From sequence record OZ209057.1: a DNA stretch of 64,000 nt. The stretch is one strand, 5' to 3'. The position numbers and the translations under genes are program-made. The DNA is from Escherichia phage T4. Below the pieces are notes generated by a model. The model saw only the letters and a list, made by a program, of their open reading frames with translations, did no database searches and was not told the DNA's origin. Positions 23,556 through 59,494 of this stretch are shown here, in pieces (within the stretch, counting starts at the first letter, position 1; each line of letters opens with the position of its first letter).

Positions 23556-24221
23556 TTATAGTAGTGTTCTTGTTCCACGAAATACTTCGAGCATTCTTGC
23601 ATAAGATTTATTTGGAAATCCAGCTTCAATTGCTAATTTTTTAAGCTTAATAGCACCGGGTTTTCCAGAGTTTTCCCATATTTCTTTAATCTTTTCAATG
23701 TTATCCCACATTATTGGGTCACGTTTATGTGATGGTTTATTTCTATTATAACCATATGGATTATTAAGCAAAGCTTCTTTTCGTTTTGCTTTAGTTTCTT
23801 CTGACTGCTTTTTGCCTAGCTGGGCTTTCCGGCAAACATCACTAAATCCAAGATGTTTTGGTTTTCCTTTTTGAGCTTTTGAAATTTTTTCTTTGGTTTC
23901 TGATGAAACTCTATAACCAATTCTTCTACCACCCTCTCCACCAATTTTTAAATTATAAGTCATAGGATCATTTACCACATCTATTGTTACTAATTCTCTT
24001 TCAGCATCACGGGCTGATTTAAAATCTTTATAAAACCCAAGAATGCTTAAATTAAAATTTTTCTTACCATACTTTTTCTTGGCTTGTGCTAATAAAGTTC
24101 CTGATCCCATATAACCATCATTTAAATCATCGGTTGAATGAGTTCCATAGTAAATTTTATTATTAACTAAATTAGTTATAACATAAGTATAATTATATTT
24201 CTTTTCTTTATGTCTTTTCAT
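23556..24221 (-). CDS. segA: GIY-YIG homing endonuclease SegA
   Basis: 221 aa from ATG at 24221; YTYVITNLVNNKIYYGTH ... YMGSG motifs. Confidence 0.85.
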   Translation of the reverse strand: MKRHKEKKYNYTYVITNLVNNKIYYGTHSTDDLNDGYMGSGTLLAQAKKKYGKKNFNLSILGFYKDFKSARDAERELVTIDVVNDPMTYNLKIGGEGGRRIGYRVSSETKEKISKAQKGKPKHLGFSDVCRKAQLGKKQSEETKAKRKEALLNNPYGYNRNKPSHKRDPIMWDNIEKIKEIWENSGKPGAIKLKKLAIEAGFPNKSYARMLEVFRGTRTLL

Positions 24222-24385
24222 GTCATTAATCAACTGCTATTCGATGAACTTCTCTCTTTTCTAATCAATATAACAAAAGAAGTCCCAAAAAGCAAACAGA
24301 CCTAAACCGATAATAAGCAATAAAGGTCCTAACATTTATTCCACCGGTTAAAGATAAATAACTTTCTAATAATAGTTCATAATTT

Positions 24386-24603
24386 TTATAAATCAATAGC
24401 TTTTTTGAACGCATCTTGCCATTCGGCTAATCATTAACATCTACTTCATCAAAAGATTTAGTGTAAACACCATTTTTAAGAGAAATAATGTCGACATTAA
24501 GACCCATTTCAGAAATAACTTTAAAAAGATAAATAGTTTCAGAAGATGGAACAGTTTTAAAATTAATAACATTATTACCCATATTAATTATAGCAATTTT
24601 CAT
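24386..24603 (-). pseudogene. bgt: beta-glucosyltransferase remnant: 58 N-terminal codons then TAG, joined out of frame to the last 13 codons (AEWQDAFKKAIDL)
   Basis: hand translation from ATG 24603 gives MKIAIINMGNNVINFKTVPSSETIYLFKVISEMGLNVDIISLKNGVYTKSFDEVDVND*; stop at 24427..24429; C-terminal codons present in a shifted frame. Confidence 0.8.
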
Positions 24604-24626
24604 ATTATTCCTTTTATGTTAAACGA

Positions 24627-25367
24627 TTAAGCGTATTTTCCTACATAATCTTTTTTCGAAATATGTGTTTCGCCAGTTTTCCACCAATGATCAACCAAAT
24701 AAAAATGACGAGAATACACATGTAGGCTTCCAACATTCCATATAATGGAACCTGCTTTATACTGGCGAGTTGAATCACCTGCATTCAAATCAGATACTAA
24801 TTTATCTAATACGTATTTTTGCCATGCATAATCATTACGGAATCCGAAGACCACGTCATTTGAGCGCATGTTAACAACCGCATTGATTTTCTTGTCACGA
24901 ATCAGGTATTGTACTGTATTCGTGCACATGAAATCTGACATACCATCTTTATTATAGTCAAACTGCATAGATGGACGAGTATAAATCATGATACCACGTC
25001 GAGAATCAGGATTTTGACCAAGTTCAGCTAAACACATGTCATACTGAGCATAGTTATCTTCTGACCAGATAGCCCAACCATAATTCGAGTTAATTTCACC
25101 TTTAGAAGATGCTACTTGTTGCCAAATCTTCGGTGTTTCACCCGGAATATCTTTAACGAACAAGCTTTTAGATTTATACCATTCAAGTTCACGCTGAATG
25201 TATTCATCATTAAGAGCGCCAAAAATAAACGGTTCATCTGCTACAAATGATGCGCCAATAATTTCAATAGTTTTAACACCTGTTTTATCAACTACGAAAT
25301 CTTTTTCTTTTAATGCAAGCCCCAAATGAAGACGGATTTCTTCAACTGTCATAGAGTCACTAATCAT
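24627..25367 (-). CDS. 42: dCMP hydroxymethylase gp42
   Basis: 246 aa; thymidylate-synthase-like fold protein; length matches. Confidence 0.9.
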   Translation of the reverse strand: MISDSMTVEEIRLHLGLALKEKDFVVDKTGVKTIEIIGASFVADEPFIFGALNDEYIQRELEWYKSKSLFVKDIPGETPKIWQQVASSKGEINSNYGWAIWSEDNYAQYDMCLAELGQNPDSRRGIMIYTRPSMQFDYNKDGMSDFMCTNTVQYLIRDKKINAVVNMRSNDVVFGFRNDYAWQKYVLDKLVSDLNAGDSTRQYKAGSIIWNVGSLHVYSRHFYLVDHWWKTGETHISKKDYVGKYA

Positions 25368-35756: not shown

Positions 35757-35774
35757 AAAGGGCCGAAGCCCTTT
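35757..35774 (-). terminator. UUCG hairpin at alpha-gt 3' end
   Basis: aaagggc cgaa gcccttt overlapping stop codon. Confidence 0.5.
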
Positions 35775-36975
35775 ATTTTGTAATAATGTCAAACTGTTCT
35801 TTAAAGCAGAAGCTTGAATCTTGATGCTGATACAAAAATTCATATGCTTTTTCTCGCTCACGGTCATAAAGAGCTCGGTCAGATGACAGTTCTTTAATAC
35901 GTTCAAATGTTGATTCCATATCATTTTCATCAAACCAAATGATACCGCTATCATGCGAGGTCAAAGGAGTATTATCAACACGGAATTTTAAATTTTCGCC
36001 AGTAGATTTCCAAAATACCGGAATTGTTCCACATGCACCAAGCTCGAGATGAGTATATTCGAGTGAGCGTTGTAAGTATTTCTGGTTAAGTTTACTCAAC
36101 TGATATCCAAAGCCAGATTTACTCATTCGTTCAAGCATTTCACTATTAATATAACAATCTAGGATTTGTGCCGGTTGATTCGGCGCGAGATTCATTTTAT
36201 CAATCTCACGATTACCGTAATATTCATACGGAATACCTTTTTCCTTAATTGCAATAAAAGCAGGGGAACGTTCCAGACCTTCCATTACAGTGGATTTACC
36301 AGCAGGTTTTAAGAATTTTTCATGAAAATCAAACATCTGGTAAAAACCTTTCCATGTAGTCGTACGACCAATCCAACGGTTGATATTCATGTTAATTTCA
36401 GAAACATCTTTCCAATAAGTTGACCGAACCTTCACAATATCCATAGGAGGCTGAAAATTATATACTGTCGGTGCTTCTTCAATATCATCAAACAGAGAAA
36501 CAGTTTCTGGATACCATTCTTTCATCAGAACTTTATTAAAATCACCATTATCAGAATGGCTAAAAATAACATCAGCTCGACGAACAGTTTCTTCTAATCC
36601 CAAATTTCGACGCAAAGAAAGAACAGAATGATCATGCTGATAAACTACAACACGAATAGAAGGTTTAATATTATCTAAAAGTTTTTTATAGTTATTAATC
36701 GTAGCTTCTTGAACGGAAGTAGCAGGAACAGAATTAATAATTAGAATATCACAATCATTTACTAGCTTAAGTGCTTTATCGTATTCTTTAGCTAAAATAA
36801 CTGGAATTGAAAATGATTTGTGGTCATGAGAACTTGTACGAGTAAATGATTTATCTTTAGCATAAACCAAAGTTACTTCATGACCATTTTTAATAAACCA
36901 ATCACGTTGCTCGAGTGAGAATTTTGTTACACCACAACCTTCAAGACCTCGAGCCATAAAAATGCAAATACGCAT
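35773..36975 (-). CDS. agt: alpha-glucosyltransferase (HMC-DNA alpha-glucosylation)
   Basis: 400 aa intact ORF; length matches T4 alpha-gt. Confidence 0.88.
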   Translation of the reverse strand: MRICIFMARGLEGCGVTKFSLEQRDWFIKNGHEVTLVYAKDKSFTRTSSHDHKSFSIPVILAKEYDKALKLVNDCDILIINSVPATSVQEATINNYKKLLDNIKPSIRVVVYQHDHSVLSLRRNLGLEETVRRADVIFSHSDNGDFNKVLMKEWYPETVSLFDDIEEAPTVYNFQPPMDIVKVRSTYWKDVSEINMNINRWIGRTTTWKGFYQMFDFHEKFLKPAGKSTVMEGLERSPAFIAIKEKGIPYEYYGNREIDKMNLAPNQPAQILDCYINSEMLERMSKSGFGYQLSKLNQKYLQRSLEYTHLELGACGTIPVFWKSTGENLKFRVDNTPLTSHDSGIIWFDENDMESTFERIKELSSDRALYDREREKAYEFLYQHQDSSFCFKEQFDIITK

Positions 36976-57967: not shown

Positions 57968-58189
57968 TTATTCGAGGGAAAGAAGATACTTACTCTGGTA
58001 AAACATTCCAGTAATATCATCTATCGTGCTTTGGATGGCTGGAGGCATTTCTTTATAAATGCTGTTAGATTGGTCTAGTATGCGATCAATCATTTTAATT
58101 GTGTCGGTAGGAAGTTTACTGGCATCTGGAATTGAAGGCGTGTATTTTCGACCAGAATACCCCAAATATTGCTCACCCAAATTTATCAA
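57968..58189 (-). CDS. hypothetical small protein
   Basis: 73 aa ORF. Confidence 0.5.
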
Positions 58190-58355
58190 TCAAATCTGGC
58201 AACTCGGAAAAAATAAAATCGTATGCTTTGGGTCTAGCATAACTTTTAGTTTCAAAATGTGCAGAATGAAAATAAGCTTGTGCAGCCATTAATAAACCTA
58301 AGTATTCATCTGCCTTTGAAGGTTTTCCACTTTGTGAAAAGTCGCTGAATTTCAT
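58173..58355 (-). CDS. hypothetical small protein (rI.-1 position)
   Basis: 60 aa ORF. Confidence 0.5.
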   Translation of the reverse strand: MKFSDFSQSGKPSKADEYLGLLMAAQAYFHSAHFETKSYARPKAYDFIFSELPDLIDKFG

Positions 58356-58645
58356 TCAGTCTCCAATTTAATGTTCATAATTCTAGCGTATGATTGTGCC
58401 ATCTCCGCGCCTCGCTCTATACATTCAAAATCAGAAGAGCACGGGTCATTTTTATAGGTCGTTCTCATAAAACTATAGAATTGTTCAGACGATTCTACGC
58501 TTTTATTTTCAAAAAGCATATAAACGTGCCTAATACCAGATTCCATAAATTTATCAAAATGAGGATCGACATTCGCTTCAATCGATGGAGATAAAACAAA
58601 TGACAATCCTAGCATGGCAAAAAGTGCTGTTGCTTTTAAGGCCAT
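58352..58645 (-). CDS. rI: lysis-inhibition regulator RI
   Basis: 97 aa; N-terminal signal-anchor MALKATALFAMLGLSFVLSPSIEA; matches T4 RI as recalled. Confidence 0.85.
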   Translation of the reverse strand: MALKATALFAMLGLSFVLSPSIEANVDPHFDKFMESGIRHVYMLFENKSVESSEQFYSFMRTTYKNDPCSSDFECIERGAEMAQSYARIMNIKLETE

Positions 58646-58912: not shown

Positions 58913-59494
58913 CTAACCGAGCTTTTTAGTTAATTCATTCCAATGTTTTCTACACAAAGAAACATAAATTTCATCACCAATACAAATTTGATTACCTTCT
59001 TTAACTGGTGTTCCATCTTCCATTAATCGAGCTGTCATAATCGCTTTTTTACCACAATGACAAACTGCTTTTAGTTCAATAAGTTTATCTGCAATCGCTA
59101 AAAGTTCTTTAGAACCTTCAAATAATTTTCCAGCGAAATCAGTCCTTAGCCCATAAGCCATAACAGGAACATTATATGTATCAACAATTCGGCTCAATTG
59201 ATGCACCTGTTCAGTTTTTAAAAACTGAGCTTCATCTACAAATACGCAATGAATATCTTTTTGTGCTTCAGCCCATTTATAGAACTCGAAAATATCCATA
59301 TCATCTGTAATAATATTCGCTTCCTGCTTAATTCCAATGCGAGAAACGACTTCACAGACAGAATCGCGAGTATCAATAGCAGGCTTAAGAACTAATACAC
59401 TCATTCCACGTTCTTTATAATTATGTGCAGCAGTCAAAAGAGAAGCAGATTTTCCAGCATTCATTGCTGCATAAGTAAAAATTAAACTCGCCAT
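58913..59494 (-). CDS. tk: thymidine kinase
   Basis: 193 aa; P-loop AMNAGKSASL; zinc-binding CHCGKKA...C. Confidence 0.9.
   Translation of the reverse strand: MASLIFTYAAMNAGKSASLLTAAHNYKERGMSVLVLKPAIDTRDSVCEVVSRIGIKQEANIITDDMDIFEFYKWAEAQKDIHCVFVDEAQFLKTEQVHQLSRIVDTYNVPVMAYGLRTDFAGKLFEGSKELLAIADKLIELKAVCHCGKKAIMTARLMEDGTPVKEGNQICIGDEIYVSLCRKHWNELTKKLG

Follow-up and report, generated by a model that had tools for sequence, protein, structure and literature searches.

An 838-bp beta-glucosyltransferase deletion in a bacteriophage T4 genome very probably marks the engineered laboratory strain T4Δβ-gt

The stretch of DNA analysed here (the window, 64,000 nucleotides numbered from its first letter) carries a beta-glucosyltransferase gene (beta-gt) that has lost 838 bp of its interior. 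We conclude with high confidence that the window represents the opening 64 kb of the genome of T4Δβ-gt (OZ209057), a laboratory strain, and that the deletion was engineered by plasmid-templated recombination with Cas13b selection. T4Δα-gt and T4Δβ-gt were both built by plasmid recombination and Cas13b counter-selection (Bhoobalan-Chitty, Stouf & De Paepe, Front Genome Ed 2024, INRAE Micalis; PMC11693715), and the data statement of that paper gives OZ209023 (alpha-gt) and OZ209057 (beta-gt) as the mutant genomes. The beta-gt deletion has thus been published, deposited and phenotyped, and is already known.

A base-by-base exact comparison with NC_000866.4 showed that beta-gt in the window is short of exactly 838 bp, corresponding to NC_000866 24443-25280, and that the sequences match exactly over 529 bases to the left and 573 bases to the right of the deletion. 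The left match stops at 24428 and the right one begins at 24428; this overlap of 1 base (T/A at 24428), common to both flanks, leaves a corresponding positional ambiguity in the junction, which is placed at 24428|24429 on the plus strand. The kept 5' part of the gene (24429..24603, minus strand), preceded by the native ribosome-binding site, comprises codons 1-58, beginning with the start codon, together with one base of codon 59 (Tyr, TAT), its first, and is identical to nt 1-175 of NC_000866 beta-gt. The minus-strand open reading frame 24603..24427 encodes the 58-aa peptide MKIAIINMGNN...DEVDVND and ends at a TAG (24427..24429, minus strand; frame 0 reads ...DEVDVND*), a stop codon made by the junction because the TA of codon 59 (TAT) now abuts the G of codon 339 (GCC). 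The kept 3' end (24386..24427, minus strand) holds codons 339-351 (AEWQDAFKKAIDL, translated in frame 2) and the TAA; the reference beta-GT protein ends in ...KKAEWQDAFKKAIDL (NC_000866). The coding DNA for residues 1-58 and 339-351 is identical to wild type, codons 59-338 are gone, the frame is shifted, and the two stubs are unequal, at 176 and 42 nt. Lying in a different frame from the 5' part, the 3' codons are not translated as beta-GT. An earlier reading made from the sequence alone had described an internal deletion of roughly 0.84 kb with a junction near 24427..24429, leaving 58 residues, a TAG and, in a shifted frame, the final 13 codons with their TAA, and had taken it for a clean deletion rather than divergence; exact comparison with NC_000866.4, the identical flanks, alignment to the T4 reference and minus-strand translation agree with that description throughout.

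The 58-aa peptide matches the Pfam model PF09198 (T4 beta-glucosyltransferase; 167 positions) over positions 1-59 (E = 9e-29), whereas the full 351-aa reference beta-GT covers all of PF09198 and has a C-terminal glycosyltransferase-like domain as well. Roughly two thirds of the N-terminal domain model fall within the deletion, and with the TAG after codon 58 and the tail out of frame, the C-terminal glycosyltransferase domain is lost entirely. The allele is a null, encoding a 58-residue N-terminal stub devoid of the catalytic C-terminal domain. A scan around the remnant for sites resembling promoters or terminators gave fewer of them than shuffled sequence does and was uninformative. Beta-gt and segA are separated by a 164-bp spacer, which contains a 24-codon hydrophobic open reading frame (MLGPLLLIIGLGLFAFWDFFCYID; 24261..24335, minus strand), with GGTGGA 4 bases 5' of its ATG; this frame is unannotated in NC_000866.

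To place the deletion among other T4 genomes, window positions 23900-25000 were compared by megablast with 50,697 phage records, a collection that does not include OZ209057. All 15 T4-type records covering the query, among them NC_000866, AF158101, KJ477684-6, MT984581, T4T, RB55 and RB59, matched it in two pieces and span 1,939 bp where the window has 1,101 bp; beta-gt is therefore truly full length (351 codons) in the reference, as the sequence-only reading had stated. The deletion junction itself was present in 0 of the 505 matching phage records in this search; no searched record carries the deletion, because OZ209057 lies outside the collection. The earlier reading had also named an assembly artefact as a possible refutation; in that case the assembler would have collapsed a full-length beta-gt. 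We regard this as exceedingly improbable, since no repeats able to cause such a collapse lie at the endpoints, since the strain's makers found missing coverage together with junction reads in their breseq analysis and confirmed the deletion by PCR with external and internal primers (PMC11693715), and since LC-MS/MS detected no beta-glucosyl-hmC in T4Δβ-gt (PMC13216743).

The identity of the strain follows from its published markers. The breseq table for T4Δβ-gt (Supp. Fig. 5, PMC11693715) lists 'MC JC 24,429 Δ838 bp [bgt]', a T→G change at 59,069 that causes H42P (CAC→CCC) in a hypothetical protein, and an A→G change at 84,622 that causes N528S in gp7, the last at a position beyond the 64-kb window. 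In the window, the deletion measures 838 bp and its first missing base is 24,429. The base at 58231 is G (plus strand), whereas OZ209023 and NC_000866 have T; on the minus strand this changes CAC to CCC, giving H42P in the rI.-1 open reading frame 58173..58355, which reads ...SYARPKAYDF, with ARPKAY in place of the reference ARHKAY. Adding the deleted 838 to 58231 gives 59069, the published position of the T→G marker. Compared in this way through the published table, the window is like T4Δβ-gt (OZ209057) in deletion size, deletion position and private SNP, with no difference seen within the window. As to rI.-1 itself, a 1-base insertion (GG→GGG) splits the gene into 60-aa and 73-aa open reading frames (58173..58355 and 57968..58189, minus strand) by creating an immediate TGA, where NC_000866 has a single 129-aa frame. 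The insertion is common to OZ209023 and KJ477684/KJ477685 and absent from most other T4 records, and therefore reflects variation from stock to stock.

The genetic background points to the same laboratory. The best-matching record is OZ209023.1, a French submission with locus tags 'T4mut_alphagt' whose coordinates start at the same point as those of the window. Over the 64 kb compared, the two are 100.000% identical across 24,428 + 11,455 + 27,053 bp, and the exceptions are three: the 838-bp beta-gt deletion, a 1,065-bp alpha-gt deletion in OZ209023, and one SNP, at 58231, which is the sole mismatch. Outside the edited loci and this SNP, the window is thus isogenic with the INRAE T4 stock. Against NC_000866.4, by comparison, 66 mismatches and 33 gap openings were counted over the 64 kb; one example of a difference from NC_000866 is an 819-nt homing-endonuclease frame annotated in OZ209023 that spans 60.1 and mobA. 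Near-total identity with OZ209023, set against the dozens of mismatches and indels that separate both from NC_000866, implies that the window and OZ209023 are siblings of one laboratory stock. In the two regions checked (23900-25000 and 58120-58400), the window is closer to resequenced T4 genomes such as KJ477684 than to NC_000866, and because of this better fit many of the differences from NC_000866 probably stem from mistakes in that older record or from variation among stocks.

The sibling T4Δα-gt (OZ209023) resembles the window in its stock and numbering, in its 100% identity outside the edited loci, and in having an unmarked deletion with near-zero homology at the junction. It differs in the gene removed: 1,065 bp of alpha-gt are deleted in frame (window 35883-36947 is absent), and the beta-gt DNA is full length. 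At position 24463 of OZ209023.1, however, beta-gt codon 327 is changed from CAA to TAA (C979T, Q327*), a change private to this record among the T4 genomes compared and absent from the breseq table of PMC11693715. The affected base directly adjoins the beta-gt Cas13b protospacer of Table S1 (OZ209023 24464-24493), and codon 327 falls inside the window's own deletion. T4Δα-gt is reported to be 99% beta-glucosylated (PMC13216743); with Q327* present, it follows that either the truncated enzyme of 326 aa is functional or the phage used does not have the sequence that was deposited.

The genes surrounding the deletion are undisturbed. Gene 42 (dCMP hydroxymethylase; 24627..25367, minus strand), whose promoter also drives beta-gt (PMC11693715), is intact and encodes a protein identical to that of NC_000866, as does uvsX. 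Alpha-gt (35773..36975, minus strand; 400 aa) is intact as well, as the sequence-only reading had stated; its protein is identical to NC_000866 alpha-GT, and it is the only glucosyltransferase gene left. On the other side of beta-gt lies segA (23556..24221, minus strand), which encodes a GIY-YIG homing endonuclease and is intact. SegA differs by one amino acid from the older NC_000866 record only and is identical to that of OZ209023; apart from the deletion, the 1,101 bp of window 23900-25000, including the first 322 bp of segA, are 100% identical to resequenced T4 genomes.

Homing endonucleases can trigger local repair events. With an intact segA adjoining the remnant, one may consider that the deletion arose naturally or spontaneously in some T4 stock, perhaps after a double-strand break made by SegA, and the earlier reading had named SegA as one possible driver and implied a natural origin. 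Neither suggestion survives the comparison. The isogenic sibling OZ209023 has the same segA next to full-length beta-gt DNA, the deletion endpoints lie within beta-gt, 207 bp separating the segA start codon from the junction, the junction is lacking from all 505 matching phage records, and the window carries the two published markers of the engineered strain that fall within its 64 kb. We give this origin next to no credence; it is effectively ruled out by the strain match.

We return to the engineered deletion and to how it was made. According to its makers, overlap PCR joined two arms of ~80 bp, one from either end of beta-gt, and the product was inserted into pBAD24; E. coli DH10B with this plasmid served as host for wild-type T4, and the lysate was passed to DH10B expressing Bergeyella zoohelcum Cas13b (BzCas13b) with a spacer directed at beta-gt mRNA (PMC11693715). 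By this account, phage recombination copied the fused plasmid arms into the T4 genome, and Cas13b blocks each phage still transcribing the beta-gt target; because such phages are stopped, only those that have lost the target survive. The outcome is visible in the sequence as an unmarked 838-bp deletion with a 58-codon stub ending in a junction-made TAG. The published reagents map accordingly on the genome: the deleted 838 bp contain all three Cas13 spacers for beta-gt and the two internal check primers, and the external pair brackets the deletion (24327-24348 and 24705-24726). Tables S1 and S2 give different Cas13b spacers for beta-gt, with both versions inside the deleted region.

Whether the exact junction is the designed one is a separate matter. 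The designed beta-gt junction is printed in neither PMC11693715 nor PMC13216743, and when 10-18-mers from either side of the junction were sought in the supplements of both papers, the only match was an unrelated beta-gt insertion primer. The oligos printed as pBAD24-HA(beta-gt) in Supplementary Table 2 (T4 beta-gt_HA_for and _rev) have no match in the first 66 kb of T4; they are flanks of denB (endonuclease IV), at OZ209023 166041-166124 and 166545-166630, in what looks like a mislabelled row of Supplementary Table 2 of PMC11693715. Because the printed arm oligos map to denB, the step from an engineered strain to a designed junction depends on the report of the authors that their sequencing 'revealed the expected deletions' (PMC11693715) and on the anatomy of the junction, which is free of microhomology; from these we infer that the exact junction is the one designed. 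The alpha-gt junction of OZ209023 has 0 bp of microhomology and agrees over its full length with the homology-arm oligos printed for it, so junctions of this kind are indeed a product of the method. Unlike the in-frame alpha-gt deletion, the beta-gt deletion is out of frame and leaves stubs of unequal length, a somewhat unusual choice for a designed allele but one without harm.

These particulars leave some room for a variant in which the strain is the same, and the 838 bp were lost through spontaneous illegitimate recombination, which took the Cas13b target with it and yielded a phage chosen for its plausible PCR size. We consider this unlikely, although it is better supported than either an artefact or a natural origin. 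In its favour are the printed 'beta-gt' arm oligos being denB arms, the frame of the deletion, and the 'unattended deletions' and larger number of escapers that the makers report for beta-gt compared with alpha-gt (PMC11693715). Documented Cas13b escapers in T4 beta-gt likewise remove a protospacer in the gene (Supp. Fig. 10, PMC11693715), but these untemplated deletions measure 369 bp and formed through the 9-bp repeat TTGCCAWAA, a type of repeat that the window junction lacks. The earlier reading had suggested looking for microhomology at the junction: a microhomology-mediated deletion has a direct repeat of several bases at both ends, one copy of which is kept, and here the overlap amounts to a single base. 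No direct repeat was found in wild-type beta-gt at the deletion endpoints or with 838-bp spacing, though longer repeats are available. In addition, the authors report both the expected deletion and the expected PCR size (PMC11693715), and 80-bp arms meeting at 24428|24429 agree with the arms described as coming from the gene ends. If the deletion were nevertheless spontaneous, it would show that T4 can form deletions without homology when selected by an RNA-targeting system.

The consequences of the engineered deletion have been measured. The sequence-only reading had predicted DNA with alpha-glucosyl and without beta-glucosyl groups, and LC-MS/MS on T4Δβ-gt found just this, with 80% of 5-hmC alpha-glucosylated, 0% beta-glucosylated and the remaining 20% bare 5-hmC, compared with 66% alpha and 33% beta in wild-type T4 (PMC13216743). 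The accompanying prediction, an altered sensitivity to modification-dependent restriction, proved correct in one setting only. For McrA and McrBC of E. coli it does not hold, since the virulence of T4Δβ-gt on the McrA/McrBC-proficient strain MG1655 equals that of wild type and these enzymes restrict only the double mutant (PMC13216743). It does hold in the context of Brig1, a DNA glycosylase defence against T-even phage DNA: T4Δβ-gt gives fewer Brig1 escapers, and none were detectable when type IV restriction was also present (PMC13216743).

The biology raised by the sequence-only reading has therefore already been measured on T4Δβ-gt by its makers (PMC13216743), and genome scans should read this locus as a man-made knockout in a deposited laboratory strain; it reflects neither naturally varying DNA hypermodification nor a homing-endonuclease rearrangement. 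For the phage, alpha-GT alone, with 80% glucosylation, is enough against E. coli McrA and McrBC, and the loss of beta-GT removes a route by which the phage gets out of Brig1 while remaining shielded from type IV restriction (PMC13216743).
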